A DNA stretch of 61,292 bases, filler included, from Basidioascus undulatus (Eukaryota), in the NCBI GenBank assembly GCA_000826855.1. It is 9 parts of 9 records of this genome, joined end to end, with 100 filler letters (N's around TTAATTAATTAA, not from the genome) between each part and the next. Parts side by side here need not be neighbours in the genome. Positions count along the whole stretch, not along the records: positions 13,539 to 38,870 come from JTLS01000216.1; 8 more parts are not named here. One strand, 5' to 3'. The notes beneath the pieces were generated by a model that was not told where the DNA came from, ran no database searches, and saw only the letters and a program-made list of their open reading frames with translations. Numbering within the stretch: position 1 is the first letter of the stretch; each line of letters starts with the position of its first letter. A program made the translations under genes and the position numbers. Of the stretch, positions 1,279 through 56,918 are shown piece by piece.

Positions 1279-2024
1279 ATGTCTAGCGGACTATCCCTCG
1301 TACGCCTTTCTTCCGCATTAAACAACAACACAAACAACAGGCTCACAGCGAACGAGCGTTGGCTTTGTTCCAGCTCGACAAGTCCCAGGAGCAGGCCGCG
1401 GAGGAGGAGGTTACTTGGGGTGCGTGTCGAGGCGTCTTTCTCGCTTCGCTTCGCGGAGGGGTGTGCTGATGAGGGAGAGGGGCGGGCAGAGGATCAGCAG
1501 CGCATCAACTCGTTCTCCAAGTTCAATAAGAGATTGCAGGACTTTGAGGAGGAACTGGCAAAGAAGAAGGTGCGTCATGTACTTCGAACGCTGAGGTCGC
1601 GCGAGCTGACCATGGTGCGGTGCGGCGGACGGACAGCAAGAGAAGGAGTACCTGGATGACCTGAGCATGGAGCTCGAGCTGGCGGACGAGGACGAACAGG
1701 TCCTGTGCGTCCCCCCACCCCCTCGCGCACCGTCTTCCCAGCACCCTCACCCCCTTCCGCAGGTACAAGCTCGGCGAAGCCTTCCTGCACCTCCCGCTCC
1801 ACCGCGTGCAGAAGCTGCTCGAGAACGACGCCGAGGCGCTGGACGAGCAGATCGACACGCTCAAAGCTGCGGTGGACGAGTGCGAGGGCGAGATGAGCAA
1901 GTTGAAGGTGCTGTTGAAGAGCAAGTTCCAGGTGCGTCGGACGGGACAAGGGAAGGGAGAGAGAGGAGGAAGGAGCTCATTCGTGAGGTGCGGGCGGCAG
2001 GACGCGATCAATCTGGAGCCGTGA
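1279..2024 (+). CDS. GIM3: Prefoldin subunit 4
   Basis: Exons give EEVTW|EDQQRINSFSKFN...ELELADEDEQVL|YKLGEAFLHL...EMSKLKVLLKSKF|DAINLEP*, the PFDN4 signature. Confidence 0.93.
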
Positions 2025-2705: not shown

Positions 2706-4421
2706 TCAAGCGCCCAAAAACCCCCCTTCCAGCAGCTCCCCCAACCCCTCATCCGGCTGTCTCTCCCCCCTCCCAAAGAACCTCCCCACATCCTCAAACA
2801 CCCTTGTGCGCTGCTCCCTCGACGCCGGCTCGTTCGCGCCGTCTTCCACCCCGACGCCGAGGGAGGAAGACCGCGCGAGGTGCGCCATGAGCGCGCGGAA
2901 CGTCTCGGACTGCGCGGGGTCGGCGTGGTCCACTATGGCGGAGAGGTTCGTTTGAAGGTAGAGCAGCGCTTCGGCGGGCGGGGAGGAGCGGCAGAGCTCG
3001 AGGAATCTGGTGCGGGACGCGGGAAGGGGGGGTCAGATGAGGAGGTCTCAGCGAGTTGATTGTTAAGGACACAAAACGCACCGCTGTCGCCGGACCATAA
3101 ACTTCGCGCGGCGGAGTACTTCCTCCGCGGACAAGCTGCTCAGTCCTCACGATCAGCTCGTCCTCCCCCCTGCTCAATCGCGACATCTCACCTCTTCAAC
3201 CCAACCTCCCACAAGTCGTCCAGCCGTACGCTGCCCTCCTCCCCCGGATTGCCCCCAAAGACCCACTCCACCCCCCTCCTCTTATCCCTGACCATCTGGT
3301 GCGCGTACCGCCCCTCCGGCTCCCACTCGCCCGCGACAGGCTCAAGCTCCGTCCACCCCCCGTCCGCTAGGCGCCAGACCCAGAACGACTCGCCCGAGTA
3401 GAGGTGCACTTCGCGGGCGGAGGCGTCGTACGTCGCGCGCTGGGCGAACCCCTCGGGCGAGGGGAACGGGAGGAGCGTTGAGGTGGAGGATGAGAGCGAG
3501 TAGGACCACGTGGAGGTTAGGAGGGCATCGTCGCGCTGCCAGGCGGGAGGGGGACGTTAGAAGAAGAGGGGAGTGGAGGGGAGATGGACAAGACGTCGCA
3601 CTTGTCCGGCGAAGATGAGCAGTTGACGACCGATCGGGTCGTGCAGCATGATGTGTCTATCCAGCTCCAGTTGTCAGCGGAGGACAGAGAATCAGAGAAG
3701 ATTGCTCTTCTTACCCGAACCTCGCAGGCGGTCGCGGTGCGGCTGCAGGAAGCCCTTCGGCGACATCTCCACTGCAGAGCGCCTCCCCGTTAAGCGTCGC
3801 ACCTCGCAACAGCAGATCAGCAACACTCACAAGACCATGATCCAACTTCTCCCGAGAATATCGTACTGCGCCAAAGCAGGAGTGTCAGAATGGGCCGCCG
3901 AGCGAAGCAGCGCCGAGTGGGCGCACCTTGAACATGCCGGACAGGACGAACGACCCGTCGATCTGGAGGCACTTGCCACCGAACAGGTAGAGGACCTTTC
4001 GACGCTCATATATATCAATCCCCGTCGAAAGAACAGGTGAGGTGATAACCCACCTGCTCATCGCTACTCAAAACCATCTGATGATCCCAGATCGTTTTCG
4101 GGCCTCCCTCCGCCTATCCCCTCCCTCGCGCATCAGTCCCCCTCTCCCCTCTCCTCTCCCCTCAACTTCCACTCAAAAGACGAACCGACGTATCAGCCGA
4201 CAGCCGCTCCCACTCGCCCCTCCGCGCGCCGCGCGTCGCATACCTCCAAAAGTCGTTTGAAAGGCTCTCCGACCCGGGCGGGGCGAGCTTCCCCCCTGGC
4301 CCGAGGGCTTGGTAGAACTTGCCGAGGAGGTAGATGTGGCCTGTGCGGTCGTCCTGCCCCGGAGAGGGGGGGTGAGCGGTGCGAGGAAGGTGGGGGGGGG
4401 TAGGGGGGGGGACGGACAAAG
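2706..4421 (-). CDS. Muskelin-like kelch-repeat protein, C-terminal part (5' truncated at contig end)
   Basis: GRYAHQMVRD...WVFGGNPG...RLDDLW kelch blade followed by VDHADPAQSETFRALMAHL and RTRVFE, typical of the muskelin C-terminus. Confidence 0.85.
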
Positions 4422-4521
4422 NNNNNNNNNNNNNNNNNNNNNNNNNNNNNNNNNNNNNNNNNNNNTTAATTAATTAANNNNNNNNNNNNNNNNNNNNNNN
4501 NNNNNNNNNNNNNNNNNNNNN
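4422..4521. other. Artificial contig linker N44-TTAATTAATTAA-N44 (also at 8938-9037, 13439-13538, 38871-38970, 43370-43469, 47859-47958, 52340-52439, 56819-56918)
   Basis: Identical 100-nt spacer with stops in all six frames, eight occurrences; genes are cut at these points. Confidence 0.99.
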
Positions 4522-4590
4522 AGTGGTTAACGCGCTGCCCTGCTAAGGCAGTTCCCTCTGGGAGCGTGTGTTCGAATCACACAGGCGTCG
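4522..4590 (+). tRNA. tRNA-Ser(GCT), 5' end truncated by contig start
   Basis: D-loop AGTGGTTAA, anticodon arm CTGCC-CTGCTAA-GGCAG, long variable arm, T-arm GTGTG-TTCGAAT-CACAC, followed by T7 Pol III terminator at 4591-4597. Confidence 0.93.
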
Positions 4591-6090: not shown

Positions 6091-6162
6091 TCCTCGTTGG
6101 TGTAGTGGCTAACATCGGGTGTTCTCACCGCCCAGCCCCGGGTTCGATTCCCGGACGAGGAA
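6091..6162 (+). tRNA. tRNA-Glu(CTC), intronless
   Basis: TCCTCGT/ACGAGGA acceptor stem, anticodon arm GGGTG-TTCTCAC-CGCCC, T-arm CCGGG-TTCGATT-CCCGG, short T-run downstream. Confidence 0.96.
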
Positions 6163-8937: not shown

Positions 8938-10266
8938 NNNNNNNNNNNNNNNNNNNNNNNNNNNNNNNNNNNNNNNNNNNNTTAATTAATTAANNNNNNN
9001 NNNNNNNNNNNNNNNNNNNNNNNNNNNNNNNNNNNNNCTGGGTTGTATGTGGTGGATGCTCATACGAGAAGGGTTTCAGTTTGATTAGATTTGGAGAGGG
9101 ATCTATGAGTACTTCAGATAGTGATGCTGAAGGTGCAGCTGGACGACAGTGCTGTCTACGGCAGCTGCGTGGCGTGTCGCTTTGAGAGCCGGCCTGATGC
9201 TGACCCGCGGGGCTCAGTCGCACTTCCTCTGAAGCTGGGATTTAGTATGTTGTAATATCTACCGCTCAAAATGATAAGTTGTGAGACGGCAATCATCCCA
9301 GTCTTTATCTAGTCTGGCAATGCACTCCTCCATCCTAGCTCTTGTAAGAGACCGCCGTACAGGCCCCATCAGTATTATGGCTGAAACTAGGATGTAATAT
9401 GAGAGCTTCATCCTCAATCAGTGGACGATACCACGATACAACGGCAACTTTGCTAAGCAACACTCTTGCAAGCGTTCCCTTCCGCGCTTGCCAACCGATT
9501 ACCTAGCACCAATTATTATCACCAATCCACATAATCATAATAATGGTAAAAAGTCCCTTTAAGTGAAATATCAGAGGCCCCAGACTTAGGCTTCGATCCT
9601 GACTGCACCACGCTGCCATTGCCACTGGTAACAGGCCCTTGACTTTGAACGACTTGCAGTCGTGTTCTCCTAGCGTCCTTAAGGACAGTGCAGGAGAGTC
9701 TCCTGAGAACTGAAACCTTCTTTTCCCTGAGTATGATGCAAGCTTCGGAAACAAGGAGCAACAAGGGCGAGTCAGTCAAACTGCCCTGCTGCGTCTCGCT
9801 TTCAGGGCTTGCATTGCCCAATCCCCTTTGATGATGCTGCTCAGTAACCAGACCACGTCGGGGTAGTTATACTCAAGCCAATCCCTCAATGCACTCGTAT
9901 CCGAAAAAGTAAGTGTACTTCCTGACAGGATGGCCCAGGCGCGACGAGATCCTGCCACTCAGCCGACCGTCGCTAAGCCTCAACCTCGAAACACTCACGC
10001 CCAAGCACTCCCAAACGTCAGCAAACTACCGTCCATTCTTCAATTCTTAGTCCCCTTCTCGCTAGGAAGAAACGCTGGGGGGGGACGGCACCTGACCGGG
10101 GCAGGTGACCGATAGTCTGCCTCCGGCATTCTCACGCTGTCGCTTCAGGAGCCAACAAGACGCTCGTGTGTCTTTCTACTCTCCTCTCACTCAGCACTCC
10201 CCATAAACCAACGCACAGAGCCAGCCTCACGAACCCATCAAGCACATAAACAAGCAATCACTCAAG

Positions 10267-13438: not shown

Positions 13439-13538
13439 NNNNNNNNNNNNNNNNNNNNNNNNNNNNNNNNNNNNNNNNNNNNTTAATTAATTAANNNNNN
13501 NNNNNNNNNNNNNNNNNNNNNNNNNNNNNNNNNNNNNN

Positions 13539-30907: not shown

Positions 30908-31634
30908 CGTGGTGGATTGAGTGCTTTGGTTGTGTGAGGGTGTAAAGTGATGAACCTAAGGGTATTCGTGCAAGGTGAGTAAAGGAGCGAAAGAGCAGCA
31001 GTGCGTCGATCAAAAGTTGTGCGTGAGACGAGGCCGAAGAGGTGGAGCAGCGCATCGCTGACGGAAGGTGGAGCGTGAGCGTCGAGAACTGGCTCGAAGG
31101 TGGGATGACGCCATCTAGACTCCGATAAGACACGCGTTTTTTTATAGCTGTACGCGATCAGTTACACGTGCATAATGCAAGGATTAATGTTTTCGTCACA
31201 ACTCACAAGCTCATGCCGGCGTGGGAGGCGCTGATCGTCATGATGAGGGCGGCGACCGACCGCTCGCTGGTGGACGAGGCGGACGTTGGTCACTCTAGCC
31301 GCCACGTGCCGCTCGAAACGTGCTGCAAGAACTGTTTGATGTACTGGTTTTGAATTTCAAGAACAATTCATGATTGTGTTGCTCGAAGTGTACAGTCAGT
31401 GCGGATACTGGTGCGGATAGTGGCTGTGGCGAAGGAGCCAGGACGAGGAGTCGGGATCACCCCTCGTCGGCAGTCAACCTCGAGCATTACCTCGGGCCGA
31501 CAACCTTGGGATACAACAACTGTAAACCGCCCGGTACATCAGACACTAGGCTTGACTTGTCCCAAATTGCATCAAGAAGCGGTGAGAAGTCGGCAGTCGC
31601 TCGAATGGCAGCCATTTTGATTGCGTCAAAGAGT

Positions 31635-31643
31635 CTATATTTC
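31635..31643 (+). promoter_or_regulatory. TATA-like element upstream of the permuted tRNA
   Basis: CTATATTTC about 50 nt upstream of the 3' half; position fits an external Pol III promoter (inference). Confidence 0.4.
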
Positions 31644-31689
31644 AAAAGGAAGAGGTCGTTACCGTCAGTTTGATCAAACGGTAGTCGGG

Positions 31690-31762
31690 ATCAGGGGGTT
31701 GCAGGTTCGATCCCTGCGTCGGTCACGGCCGGCTGGCTCAATGGTAGAGTATCTGACTACGA
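31690..31762 (+). tRNA. Circularly permuted tRNA-Arg(ACG): 3' half 31690-31725, 1-nt spacer, 5' half 31727-31762
   Basis: Swapping the halves gives a complete 72-nt cloverleaf: acceptor GGCCGGC/GTCGGTC plus A73, D-arm GCTC-AATGGTA-GAGT, anticodon arm TCTGA-CTACGAA-TCAGG, T-arm GCAGG-TTCGATC-CCTGC; TTATTTT follows. Confidence 0.88.
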
Positions 31763-32199
31763 CTTATTTTGTTCCTTAATAGGTTTTCTTCCTTTTGACA
31801 GGGTGCGCCAAGAACCAGTCCGTTCAATAGACACAGTTCCTAGGAATCAAAGCTGCGAAGATGTCAAGAGACAGGTTGGAATAGCCCTTGCCTGCACAGG
31901 AAATTTAGCAATGTTTTGTACAGGTTTGGGAGCAAGAATAGCCCCATGCACAGCTGTATTGGGTGTAACGGAACGTTGACAACAGGCAGCACCAGCAAGT
32001 CCGGCAGCCAGGTCTTGTACATGAGGTCGGATCATCGGCTACCAAAACTTGTAATTGTAGCCAGGGCTATCCATAATAAGATCGAAGAACAGAGCGCATC
32101 GGACACCCTCGAGCTCGTTCACTCGTCAGCTGTTCCAGAGAATAGAGATGTTAACGTTGCGGTAGTACGGTGGCGGAGCTTCAAGGTAAACACCGAAGC

Positions 32200-33050
32200 A
32201 GCTCAGCTTCCTCCCACCCCGCAGCGAGCATCGCCTCCCGGATGTCACCTCCTTCTCGAGCCACTGCTCCTCGATGCCCATTGTATCGGCCAGGCGGATG
32301 CGAAACTCGCGACGCTGCTCCTCAATCTCCGGCAGAAAGCGACTCTTCCCCTGGCGTTCCGCAATCGCCTTGCAGTCCTCCACGTAGGCCATGTCGAAGG
32401 TCAAGCGCGGGCTCGAGATCCGCCAAATGACGGCATCAGATTCCCAGCGGTGTCTGTCCATCCAGGAGCCCGCGAGCGTCTGACCTGGCATCAGCGAACA
32501 GCGCAGTGGGCAAGACTCGGTACCGCGCTCAGGCCTTCGATGACGTTCCCCAGGACTCCGTCGCTACGAGACGCGGCTATGATGCACTCTTCGATGCCGG
32601 CACAGCACAGCAGATTTGGAAAACTCTCCCAGCAGTGGCGAGCGTCTTCGTATCTCCGGAAACGAGACTGTAAAAGCGAGGTGAAGTCGTCGACTTCGTT
32701 GTCTTCAAGCCGGAGAAGCTGCAGCTCGAGCACTCGAATCAGGCAGCGCCGCTTGTAGAGGTAGGAGAACGCGTCCAGGAGGGTCAACCCCGACAGACGA
32801 GGACGAGGCGATCTAGGATGAGGCTCAGCAAATGCGGGTTTAGACAGAGCGTCCGAGGCGAAGCGCGAGTGCTGTCCTGAGTGAGTGAGGGCGCAGCGCG
32901 AGTAGGCAACTCGCATGCGAGGCGGTACCATGTCCGGCTGACGAGCAGATGCAGCAGGGAGACAGGACGCTCGACAAACTCCAGAGGCGGCGGCTCGAAA
33001 AGGTACCCAAAGATCAAGAGAAGCACGTCGAAAGTGAGTGGCCTCGCGGA
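32200..33050 (-). pseudogene. Decayed F-box-like gene, copy C
   Basis: LTFDVLLLIFGYLFEPPP...LLVSRTWYRLA...TLCLNPHLL; frameshifts and stop; homologous to copies A and B. Confidence 0.7.
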
Positions 33051-38785: not shown

Positions 38786-38970
38786 CGCCGGACGATGATG
38801 ATGGGTGAGGTGAGGGTGGATGGGGGTGGGGAGGGGGGTGACACGTGAAGTCGGCGGGGGAGGAGGCAATNNNNNNNNNNNNNNNNNNNNNNNNNNNNNN
38901 NNNNNNNNNNNNNNTTAATTAATTAANNNNNNNNNNNNNNNNNNNNNNNNNNNNNNNNNNNNNNNNNNNN

Positions 38971-43369: not shown

Positions 43370-43469
43370 NNNNNNNNNNNNNNNNNNNNNNNNNNNNNNN
43401 NNNNNNNNNNNNNTTAATTAATTAANNNNNNNNNNNNNNNNNNNNNNNNNNNNNNNNNNNNNNNNNNNN

Positions 43470-47858: not shown

Positions 47859-50318
47859 NNNNNNNNNNNNNNNNNNNNNNNNNNNNNNNNNNNNNNNNNN
47901 NNTTAATTAATTAANNNNNNNNNNNNNNNNNNNNNNNNNNNNNNNNNNNNNNNNNNNNGAGCTCCAAGCTGCGCTACTCGAGAAGGCGCTGGCAGCGACG
48001 TTTGCGGGCGAGGGGTTAGTCGCGGGGTGGGATCGCGTTTGGTGATCCCGACTGGGCGCTGTCAATTTATACGCAGAATGACTCTGGACGCTTTGGGCTT
48101 TGGACCTTTGGCTTTCGTTCATGTTCCCCTTCTTCGTCTTTCGCTTTCGCTTCGCCCCTTCCCTTTTCTTTTCTTCTCCGGGTTCAGCAGCGCCGCTTTA
48201 TTCGTCTGTTCGTTGACCAGAACACTACTCGCTAGAACCAAACTCTCGACCGCCAAACCGCTTCCCCGCTCCCCGTCCCCGAGTTCGCCCCCACCCCTCC
48301 CCTCCGCTTCGCTCGTCTTTGATCATACTACTGCAGTATATCTTTTCGACATTCCCCCGACACCCACTCGCCCACACCCAAGTGTTGTCTGTTTGTTTGT
48401 ATGCTCCTTCATTCCCTTCGTTGTTTTGCTCGATATCGACCCATTTGAACGCATACCGCTCTTGTTACAGTCGTGCTGCTTACGATGTGGGATCCCTGAG
48501 CGGGCAACTCTGGTTGCCTGTAATACCCGATAGTTCAGATTTCGCTCGCCGTACAACTCCCTAATGTACTTATGCTGAAGGCGTCCTTTGCGTGCTATTT
48601 GGTCTAACGAAAACAAGTTTTGCGTGCGCGGACTACCGCTGCAGCCAGCGGGGACGGTGGTTGCTTACGTGGTGACTGTTGGAGCTTTAAAAATGCTCTC
48701 CTCTTCCTCATCAGATATTACACTGTCGTACCCAGATGCACAGGTATGTTGTCAGCCTGTACCAGCCGCAGAAAAACGGGTACTGCCTCCCGCACTATCA
48801 GCCGGGCGCGGCGCCCAACTGCGGCGAGCACGCCACTGGCACTTTCGACTTCCCGGACGGTCCGGCATCGCAGTCGTTTGGCCAGCAGCGATGGTCGTTC
48901 TCTTGGATCTAGGAGGTGTGCGATGGGCGGAATTGGGCGACCTATCTGCTCTGGCTTTCATAGAGATGGATATGGATTCGCTTTGGGACTCGTGAGGAGA
49001 AGATAGACTCTGATTATGCGTATGGTAACGAGAACTGGGAACATTCCTCCAGCAAGTCCGATCCAATTCTCGCATTCAGCAAGCTCCTTAGTACCATCTT
49101 CTGGATTGTGCCGCGAGCATACAGCGCACTCACAGCGGCATAGGTTGAGCAAAGTTGAGCGCACTGCGAGTCGCCTTGCAAAGCATTAAAGGACGATGGG
49201 AACATCGAGCAGGCACTGCACGCGTTCGAGAAGCCCGTAAAGGTCACGGCTAGACCGCACCGCAGTACTCACGGCCGACGACATCGCGATGCGTTGCAGT
49301 ATGGCGGAGGAGGTACATTTCTAATCGGAAATGTTACTTGTTGGAACCGTTACACATCAGGCACGGCGCGCTCTGAGCGAAGAATAAATGGAGCTAGAAT
49401 CGCAGTTAGGCACAGCCGTTGCGTTCAATTGTGAGACGTTGGACAAGCGAAGATTTTCCGGATGTGAGTGCATGGACCATGGTAACTGAACGACAGTAAG
49501 CCGTAAAAGTTTGTATGCAGCGACTCACCCAGTCTCCCCAGCATCCAGCCTCCCCAGCACCCCCACCCATCGGCCCTTACCGACCGTCCCCGCACCGCCA
49601 GAAGACTCGCCAGCGCAGTAACTAGGCCTGATCACCGCGTTCAGATCAGATGCGGCATCCAATAGGTGACGGAGGGATTAGAAGCTCCAGATTCCTTCTA
49701 CTAGGAGATTCAAAGTTAATTTCAGATCAATCCGCCGAGCTAGAACGCACAAGTGGCTGCGACTCGCTTGCTCGTCCTTGCGTTGTCTCTGGCGTTGACA
49801 ACTTGAAGGGGGAACGCAACCCACCCAAAACCTCTAGCGGTTTCCTATAAATAATTCCCCGAACAGAGTATGGTCGAAACATCGAGCAGGCCCCGGCACT
49901 GGTACTGTAAATGCTGATCCCGAAGGCGGAACGGCAGCTGCAGTCTCAGTCCCGATGGGCAACCGTGCGTGTGCAGGGGACTGGACAGCTGCAGCCCTTC
50001 GAGGAAATGGCATGAGAGGAAAGAATGGCTAGTGATGCACTCGTGCGAGCGATGCCAGTCGAGTGGACGCTGCCTGTTGCTGCCTAATTGCCAAGCCCTA
50101 TATTCAAAGCCCTCTCTCTCTTTCCCCGTTCTGCTCCGCACCCCGAAATCACGTCAAAATAGTATGGTGTGGTATATGCTTCGTCGCAACTCTCCCAGTC
50201 AGTCATCGAGCAATCCTTCATCAACCCCTTCTCTTTCCCTTCTCTTCCTCTCTCCTCAGTTGGCTCCCTCCCCAACCCGAACCCAGCGAGACGAAGCGGG
50301 GAGGCGGGTGGGCGAGCG

Positions 50319-52339: not shown

Positions 52340-52439
52340 NNNNNNNNNNNNNNNNNNNNNNNNNNNNNNNNNNNNNNNNNNNNTTAATTAATTAANNNNN
52401 NNNNNNNNNNNNNNNNNNNNNNNNNNNNNNNNNNNNNNN

Positions 52440-56818: not shown

Positions 56819-56918
56819 NNNNNNNNNNNNNNNNNNNNNNNNNNNNNNNNNNNNNNNNNNNNTTAATTAATTAANNNNNNNNNNNNNNNNNNNNNNNNNN
56901 NNNNNNNNNNNNNNNNNN

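Follow-up and report, generated by a model that had tools for sequence, protein, structure and literature searches.

A back-to-front tRNA-Arg(ACG) in DNA of Basidioascus undulatus and its possible reading as a circularly permuted tRNA gene

On the plus strand of a 61,292-nucleotide stretch of DNA from Basidioascus undulatus (GenBank assembly GCA_000826855.1; this whole stretch, filler included, is called the window in what follows) the two halves of a tRNA-Arg(ACG) lie next to each other in reversed order. The 3' half (31690-31725; tRNA positions 38-73) comes first; it runs from the 3' strand of the anticodon stem through a variable loop of 5 nt, the T arm with its B box (GGTTCGATCC, from 31704) and the acceptor 3' strand to the discriminator A. 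A single C (31726) links discriminator A73 to G1 of the 5' half (31727-31762; positions 1-37), which is made up of the 5' strand of the acceptor stem, the D arm with its A box (TGGCTCAATGG, from 31734), the 5' strand of the anticodon stem and the loop bases CTACGA. Both halves are complete, with no base missing or doubled, and the break falls at the canonical intron site between positions 37 and 38. This arrangement had been picked out by a first, sequence-only reading of the window, which gave halves and link exactly as they are found; the observation of a back-to-front tRNA-Arg(ACG) is confirmed.

When the halves are swapped by script, or when the 73-nt unit is doubled, ARAGORN calls a 72-nt tRNA-Arg(ACG), which bears out the earlier claim that reordering restores an intact tRNA. 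All four stems of the swapped tRNA are paired (acceptor, 7 bp; D, 4 bp; anticodon, 5 bp; T, 5 bp), with four G-U pairs (2:71, 6:67, 10:25 and 27:43), and U8, A14, G18G19, U33, the T loop GTTCGATCC and the A15/U48 combination are present. In the DNA as it stands there is no ARAGORN call at the unit (standard scanners had been expected to miss it), and the whole window yields only a tRNA-Glu(CTC) at 6091-6162. With 27 nt of the 5' half as query, a metagenome scan returned one locus (L001), in DNA of 22% GC from an unrelated organism: an ordinary, intron-less tRNA-Arg(ACG) (1465-1536, minus strand) with a T5 run a few bases downstream. The swapped fungal tRNA is identical to it at 59 of 72 positions, including an unbroken run of 33 nt through the D and anticodon arms, and the 13 mismatches fall in the T and acceptor stems, at position 9, at one base of the variable loop and at the discriminator. 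Both tRNAs have G10-U25 and U27-G43; the two acceptor G-U pairs are not shared. The extent of the match and the 33-nt core indicate that both halves are of genuine tRNA-Arg(ACG) descent, with a conserved core that appears free of decay.

Neither half has a second copy in the window: pieces of 23 nt (5' half) and 24 nt (3' half), searched with up to 3 mismatches, find one site each (0 expected in 100 shuffles). No further B-box-like site occurs within 31000-32500, and the statement that no other half lies nearby holds. An ordinary gene with a long intron was looked for and rejected, since ARAGORN with introns allowed finds only the tRNA-Glu in the window; at relaxed thresholds the same search gives 142 calls that are plainly noise. 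Among the 19 sites of a B-box scan of the window only 3 have a 5-bp T stem (the permuted unit, the tRNA-Glu and a fragment of a tRNA-Ser(GCT)), and the scan reveals no further permuted tRNA beyond the unit at 31690-31762. The tRNA-Ser(GCT) fragment is a 3' part (4523-4590, plus strand; RF00005, 33.9 bits) cut by the start of its contig; ARAGORN misses it because the 5' part of the gene has been cut off. Rfam at gathering thresholds gives no match anywhere in the window, a blank that is unreliable, since E-value mode scores the tRNA-Glu at 6091-6162 with 49.2 bits (the tRNA threshold is 29) and that may perhaps be due to the N linkers or to filters.

The flanks of the unit carry promoter-like and terminator-like sequence (controls for all flank features were drawn from the same 61-kb window). 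A TATA-like box, TATATT (31636-31641), lies 54 nt before the 3' half; TATAWW has only 14 sites on the plus strand of the window, and is found 30-65 nt upstream of 1.0% of AT-richer control positions (17/1697). The 5' half is followed by a trailer (31763-31786) that consists of CTTA and then a T4 run (31767-31770), with a second run at 31784-31787 and a third at 31793-31796, so that the runs start at +5, +22 and +31 after the 5' half. Among all control positions 1.6% have a T4 run that begins no more than 10 nt away, and among AT-richer ones 4.7%; at least three such runs within 40 nt are found at 0.12% of 1693 AT-richer positions. The nearest run has the form TTAT..TTTTG, like the terminator of the tRNA-Glu gene. 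The latter is followed by TTATCTTTTG, and the tRNA-Ser(GCT) fragment is followed directly by T7, with T8 a further 41 nt on; such runs therefore do follow polymerase III genes here. Between the halves there is a single base and no signal. As a candidate promoter and candidate terminators, the upstream TATATT and the downstream T4 runs fit the layout of permuted tRNA genes; those of algae have a TATA-like box upstream and a T stretch downstream (PMC3978253). A CCTTTTGAC motif shared by the regions after RNA genes was considered and dropped, as the third of its three copies in the window stands beside no visible RNA gene.

The leader (31654-31689) contains a palindrome, GTTTGATCAAAC (31668-31679), and overlapping it an A-box-like element, TGATCAAACGG (31671-31681), which starts 33 nt before the B box and is identical to the A-box region of the unit itself at 9 of 14 bases (estimated p ~0.06); the likeness to an A box is weak. 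The last bases of the leader, GTAGTCGGG (31681-31689), are complementary to TCTGACTAC (31752-31760), a strand of the anticodon stem and loop. The duplex of a 25-nt leader with 31750-31770 is worth -12.7 kcal/mol; among 10856 control segments, 1.1% do at least that well. Pairing with the anticodon region is typical of eukaryotic tRNA introns. The joint between leader and 3' half is also crossed by the second copy (31683-31693) of an exact 11-nt direct repeat, AGTCGGGATCA; the first copy (31449-31459) lies in the loop of a small hairpin with arms at 31442-31451 and 31459-31468. By a rough estimate, chance alone would give ~0.1 such repeats in 900 nt, so that this one may be meaningless.

Leader, unit and trailer are enclosed by a perfect 12-nt inverted repeat, with its 5' arm TCAAAAGGAAGA at 31642-31653 and its 3' arm TCTTCCTTTTGA, which includes the third T4 run, at 31787-31798. 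A 12-nt repeat is reached by one of 1629 control positions, and none of 654 AT-richer positions reaches even 10 nt. It should be said at the outset that no reading of the locus accounts well for this repeat.

A swap of tRNA halves might in principle be produced by assembly or amplification in a fragmented draft genome. The window, with nine contigs of which eight are pieces of ~4.4 kb, speaks for a poor assembly, and tRNA genes are short repeats. On the other hand, the unit is placed mid-contig, as the sequence-only reading had it, ~18 kb from the start and ~7 kb from the end of a 25.3-kb piece (13539-38870). Collapsed tRNA repeats would be expected to swap flanks, not the order of halves, and would not make the A-C-G1 joint; the flanking signals and the inverted repeat, moreover, form a coherent unit around the joints. 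An artefact is regarded as very improbable.

The single most likely reading is that of a working, single-copy, type II (37/38) circularly permuted tRNA-Arg(ACG) gene, to which we would assign a probability of roughly 40%. It is favoured because an exact split at the intron site, an intact tRNA, a TATA box, a terminator-like trailer and an intron-like leader are all expected of a type II gene. The 34 permuted tRNA genes listed in a 2014 review (PMC3978253) all come from algae (red and green), a nucleomorph and Thermofilum pendens, and type II dominates among them. With the type II genes of Ostreococcus, Micromonas, the Bigelowiella natans nucleomorph and Cyanidioschyzon merolae, as these are described there (Soma 2007; Maruyama 2010; via PMC3978253), the fungal unit shares the 3'-before-5' order on one strand, ends at 37/38, an upstream TATA-like box at a distance of ~50 nt, a stretch of T after the 5' half, the lack of signals between the halves, a CCA that is not encoded, and a leader and trailer that are able to pair. 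It differs from them in its fungal host, in a link of 1 nt against 5-74 nt, in the lack of a strict bulge-helix-bulge, in being one locus and not a set, and in its 12-nt inverted repeat; Arg(ACG) is, furthermore, absent from the PMC3978253 table.

The sequence-only reading had gone further than this, to a possible undescribed permuted-tRNA system in a basidiomycete. The type II architecture supports the permuted part of that proposal, and no fungal case appears in the PMC3978253 table or in the excerpt seen of a 2026 review, which names only algae and archaea for permuted tRNAs (PMC13578239); among the papers listed by a search of the literature (one collection, titles and openings of abstracts) there was likewise no fungal permuted tRNA gene. 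Only one locus is seen, and not a system; the interpretation as a permuted gene is partly supported. The closest parallel to the short link is the permuted tRNA-Tyr(GTA) of Thermofilum pendens (Chan, Cozen and Lowe 2011, via PMC3978253), the only gene listed there with an intervening sequence of 1 bp; those of eukaryotes measure 5-74 bp. The archaeal gene differs from the fungal unit in its host, in a junction at 59/60, in an encoded CCA (which gives an acceptor loop of 5 nt against 2) and in the possession of an extra intron.

As a working permuted gene, the unit would consist, in order, of TATA box, leader of ~25 nt, 3' half, one C, 5' half and T-run terminators. RNA polymerase III would start ~25-30 nt after the TATA box, perhaps aided by the A-box-like element that the leader places ahead of the B box, and would stop at the T4 runs. 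(Some fungal tRNA genes are TATA-dependent, and in yeast, genes that have a TATA box need no TFIIIC for their transcription in vitro; PMC3978253.) The transcript would fold into a tRNA body with a closed acceptor stem, the tRNA splicing endonuclease would cut after A37 and before A38, and tRNA ligase would join the ends. RNase P would cut 5' of G1. The link C (31726) would stand in the place of C74 of the CCA end: since the link is one C, a cut by RNase P at G1 alone would leave A73-C74, ready for CA addition, so that the link would stay as C74 and the CCA enzyme would add only CA. (A bacterial RNA with a closed 7-bp acceptor stem, the YrlA of Mycobacterium smegmatis, is cut by RNase P and then receives CCA; bioRxiv 10.1101/312249.) RNase P may also act first and generate a two-piece precursor with a 'pre-nicked intron' in place of the circular intermediate of algae. 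Since splicing in fungi can take place in the cytoplasm, that route is judged easier to realise than the circle of algae; the yeast splicing endonuclease is located on mitochondria (PMC3978253). A34 would become inosine by deamination, as it does in tRNA-Arg(ACG) generally. We infer all these maturation steps. The basidiomycete Cryptococcus neoformans has introns in 132 of its 143 tRNA genes (PMC4090602), and such lineages therefore rely heavily on the splicing machinery. In its most specific form the proposal has a permuted gene as the source of tRNA-Arg(ICG) in a deep-branching basidiomycete, with RNase P acting first, the link C kept as C74, the endonuclease and a Trl1-type ligase closing 37/38 without a circle, and a TATA box driving transcription despite the reversed internal boxes. 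Such a route would be new, and the gene would be the first of its kind beyond algae and archaea; that whole sequence of events is doubtful, and quite unlikely to be right in all its parts.

A number of observations weigh against a working gene. The two internal boxes have swapped places, B before A. The acceptor is closed by a loop of 2 nt (A73 and the C), as compared with 5-74 nt in the eukaryotic permuted genes of PMC3978253. Use of a TATA box is not the local norm, in that none lies upstream of the tRNA-Glu, the only complete ordinary tRNA gene of the window, and TATATT could also serve a minus-strand neighbour gene. The inverted repeat lies outside the proposed transcript and is unexplained by the permuted-gene model. 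The two acceptor-stem G-U pairs could represent early decay or simply this tRNA's own form. About eight flank features were tried and the fitting ones are reported, so that the small control fractions quoted above overstate the case; two of the features tried (similarity of the flanks to the halves, and a target-site duplication or second copy) were null. Finally, tRNA-Arg(ACG) is, as far as is known, multi-copy in fungi, so that a permuted copy may be dispensable.

Folding speaks on both sides. The minimum-energy fold of the short precursor is not a cloverleaf, and its z-scores are weak (-1.25 and -1.59): when the RNA folds freely the leader pairs with the anticodon-stem strand, and the T arm and closed acceptor hairpin are kept. 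The enforced cloverleaf has -29.7 kcal/mol against -32.9 for the unconstrained fold. In favour of a working gene, leader and trailer then form a 5-bp closing helix between AGUCG of the leader (31683-31687) and CGACU (31760-31764), and a 3-by-3 loop beside this helix (GGA/CUA) contains the 3' cut; in this best cloverleaf fold the 5' cut falls within a helix. A strict bulge-helix-bulge does not form: three of the four positions of its central helix (C-G, U-C, A-U, C-G) are paired, its outer helix has one pair, and the bulge-helix-bulge pairs give no stability (-19.9 against -21.3). Also in favour, the sequence allows C32 to form a pair with the G that stands three bases ahead of the 3' cut; GGA then stays unpaired, with the cut between its GG and its A. 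An anticodon-intron pair with a 3-nt bulge is what the eukaryotic splicing endonuclease requires. This enzyme otherwise measures from the tRNA body, as a 'ruler' (PMC4090602).

The main rival to a working gene is that the unit is a young and non-functional by-product that is perfect only through recency: either a tandem pair of intron-containing tRNA-Arg genes that has lost its outer exons, or a reverse-transcribed permuted or circular pre-tRNA. Both routes (tandem duplication with loss of the outer halves, and reverse transcription of permuted or circular pre-tRNAs) are given as possible origins of permuted genes in PMC3978253, where origin models A-C are in print. The leader might owe its complementarity to the anticodon region to a parental intron, and that complementarity would serve no function today. 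The perfect inverted repeat fits a former intron hairpin opened in its loop, or a fresh cassette, and its perfection is as compatible with youth as with selection. A single copy lies in the window, the A and B boxes are reversed, the 1-nt link is tighter than in any working eukaryotic example, and the two acceptor G-U pairs can be counted on the same side. The vestiges that a tandem origin might have left are, however, not to be found: the leader as a remnant of a D arm and the trailer as a remnant of a T arm, a likeness first suspected by eye, give local alignment scores that are matched by 32% and 85%, respectively, of 3967 control segments. Nor does the unit bear the marks expected of any but a very young retro-pseudogene, in that no A-tail, target-site duplication or disabling change is seen at it, no second copy lies in the window, and its context is promoter-like and terminator-like. 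A trailer that had once been part of an intron transcribed by polymerase III should lack three T4 runs, and the fungal tRNA ligase is not known to make circular RNAs. In short, a dead by-product accounts for the leader and possibly for the inverted repeat, but it predicts neither the TATA box nor a terminator-like trailer with its T runs. A working gene is preferred to a dead relic because the relic predicts none of the features that favour the gene except leader complementarity; the relic is considered rather unlikely.

Under a further alternative the locus might encode an expressed tRNA-shaped RNA that does not decode, or might be a mobile or structural cassette of 157 bp (31642-31798) bounded by the repeat. 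In the former case the RNA would retain a closed acceptor stem, a hairpin of 6 bp capped by the loop CACG and comparable to that of YrlA or of an engineered 'nicked-tRNA mimic', and would act through its tRNA-like elbow. The repeat is well beyond chance, and the segment 31636-31804 folds as a four-way junction closed by a 12-13-bp inverted-repeat stem, with z-scores of -2.8 on the plus strand and -5.2 on the minus strand. In E-value mode, the YrlA model of Rfam (RF02553) aligns end to end over 31671-31778 (42.5 bits; E 3e-8 in 451 nt searched); this score is far under the gathering score of 69, and the match arises because YrlA has the identical order of parts.

The majority of YrlA RNAs have been characterised as circularly permuted tRNAs whose acceptor loop is closed (bioRxiv 10.1101/312249). 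Like the fungal unit they consist of a stem strand, T arm, closed acceptor hairpin of 6-7 bp, D arm and stem strand; the unit differs in its sub-threshold score, in its eukaryotic host and in a recoverable complete anticodon loop, which YrlA lacks. It also has no Ro60 neighbour in what was scanned: 48 reading frames (part of the window) contain no Ro60/TROVE domain. According to a 2015 review, fungi had yielded no Y RNA candidates. The engineered 'nicked tRNA' of PMC10159003, in which a permuted tRNA capped by a tetraloop has served as the mimic, also resembles the unit as one strand that starts and ends in the anticodon loop with an acceptor closed by about four bases, but it is an artificial bacterial tRNA-Leu made to bind RtcR, and nothing here suggests such a sensor.

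A mimic has no need of an exact seven-base anticodon loop split at 37/38, and the T4 runs at 31767 and 31784 would halt polymerase III before the 3' arm of the repeat. As to a transposon at 31642-31798, such as a miniature inverted-repeat transposable element, inverted repeats are present, with no target-site duplication or flanking direct repeat, and no second copy in the 61 kb. Of the readings considered, this alternative copes best with the repeat and with the tight hairpin of the acceptor; it leaves the exact anticodon loop unexplained and is decidedly unlikely.

The preferred reading, a working permuted gene, would be of some consequence. Permuted tRNA genes have so far been reported only from a few unicellular algae, one nucleomorph and one archaeon, a distribution explained by promoters that are independent of the internal A and B boxes. 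If expressed, the unit would be the first permuted tRNA gene in a fungus and would have the shortest link of any in a eukaryote. Fungal polymerase III, splicing endonuclease, ligase and RNase P would then be able to handle a back-to-front gene, standard tRNA scanners would undercount fungal tRNA sets, and there would be a tractable setting in which to study the origin of permuted genes, as basidiomycetes can have introns in most of their tRNA genes. Even a dead unit would still be a rare snapshot of the first step in the proposed pathways of origin.

The permuted unit seems to occupy a gap of ~1 kb between two genes that are both on the minus strand, to judge by reading frames, one weak Pfam match and third-position GC. 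In the gene at 32126-32563, third-position GC is 0.72 on the minus strand against 0.60 in the overlapping plus-strand frame, and this favours the minus strand; there is therefore no plus-strand protein gene that TATATT would obviously serve, although the evidence is weak. The genes of the 25.3-kb contig are ordinary eukaryotic ones, with frames for dynactin subunit 5, Uso1/p115 and an Ost-alpha-like transporter; a frame weakly like the C-terminal domain of lysyl-phosphatidylglycerol synthase belongs to one of the two genes that flank the unit. Frames for SPX, SPRY and a pyridine-nucleotide oxidoreductase are found on other pieces of the window. The best protein matches of the oxidoreductase frame are basidiomycete (Wallemia first, with 46% identity, then Mycena, Trametes and others), and 'basidiomycete-like, without close sequenced relatives in the searched database' is therefore a fair label for this DNA.

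The nine contigs of the window are joined by N44-TTAATTAATTAA-N44 linkers at 4422-4521, 8938-9037, 13439-13538, 38871-38970, 43370-43469, 47859-47958, 52340-52439 and 56819-56918. Because the pieces are separate contigs, neighbourhood across a linker is meaningless. The contig end just before the first linker (4381-4421) is G-rich, including two runs of nine G, and could be a low-complexity assembly end or a repeat.

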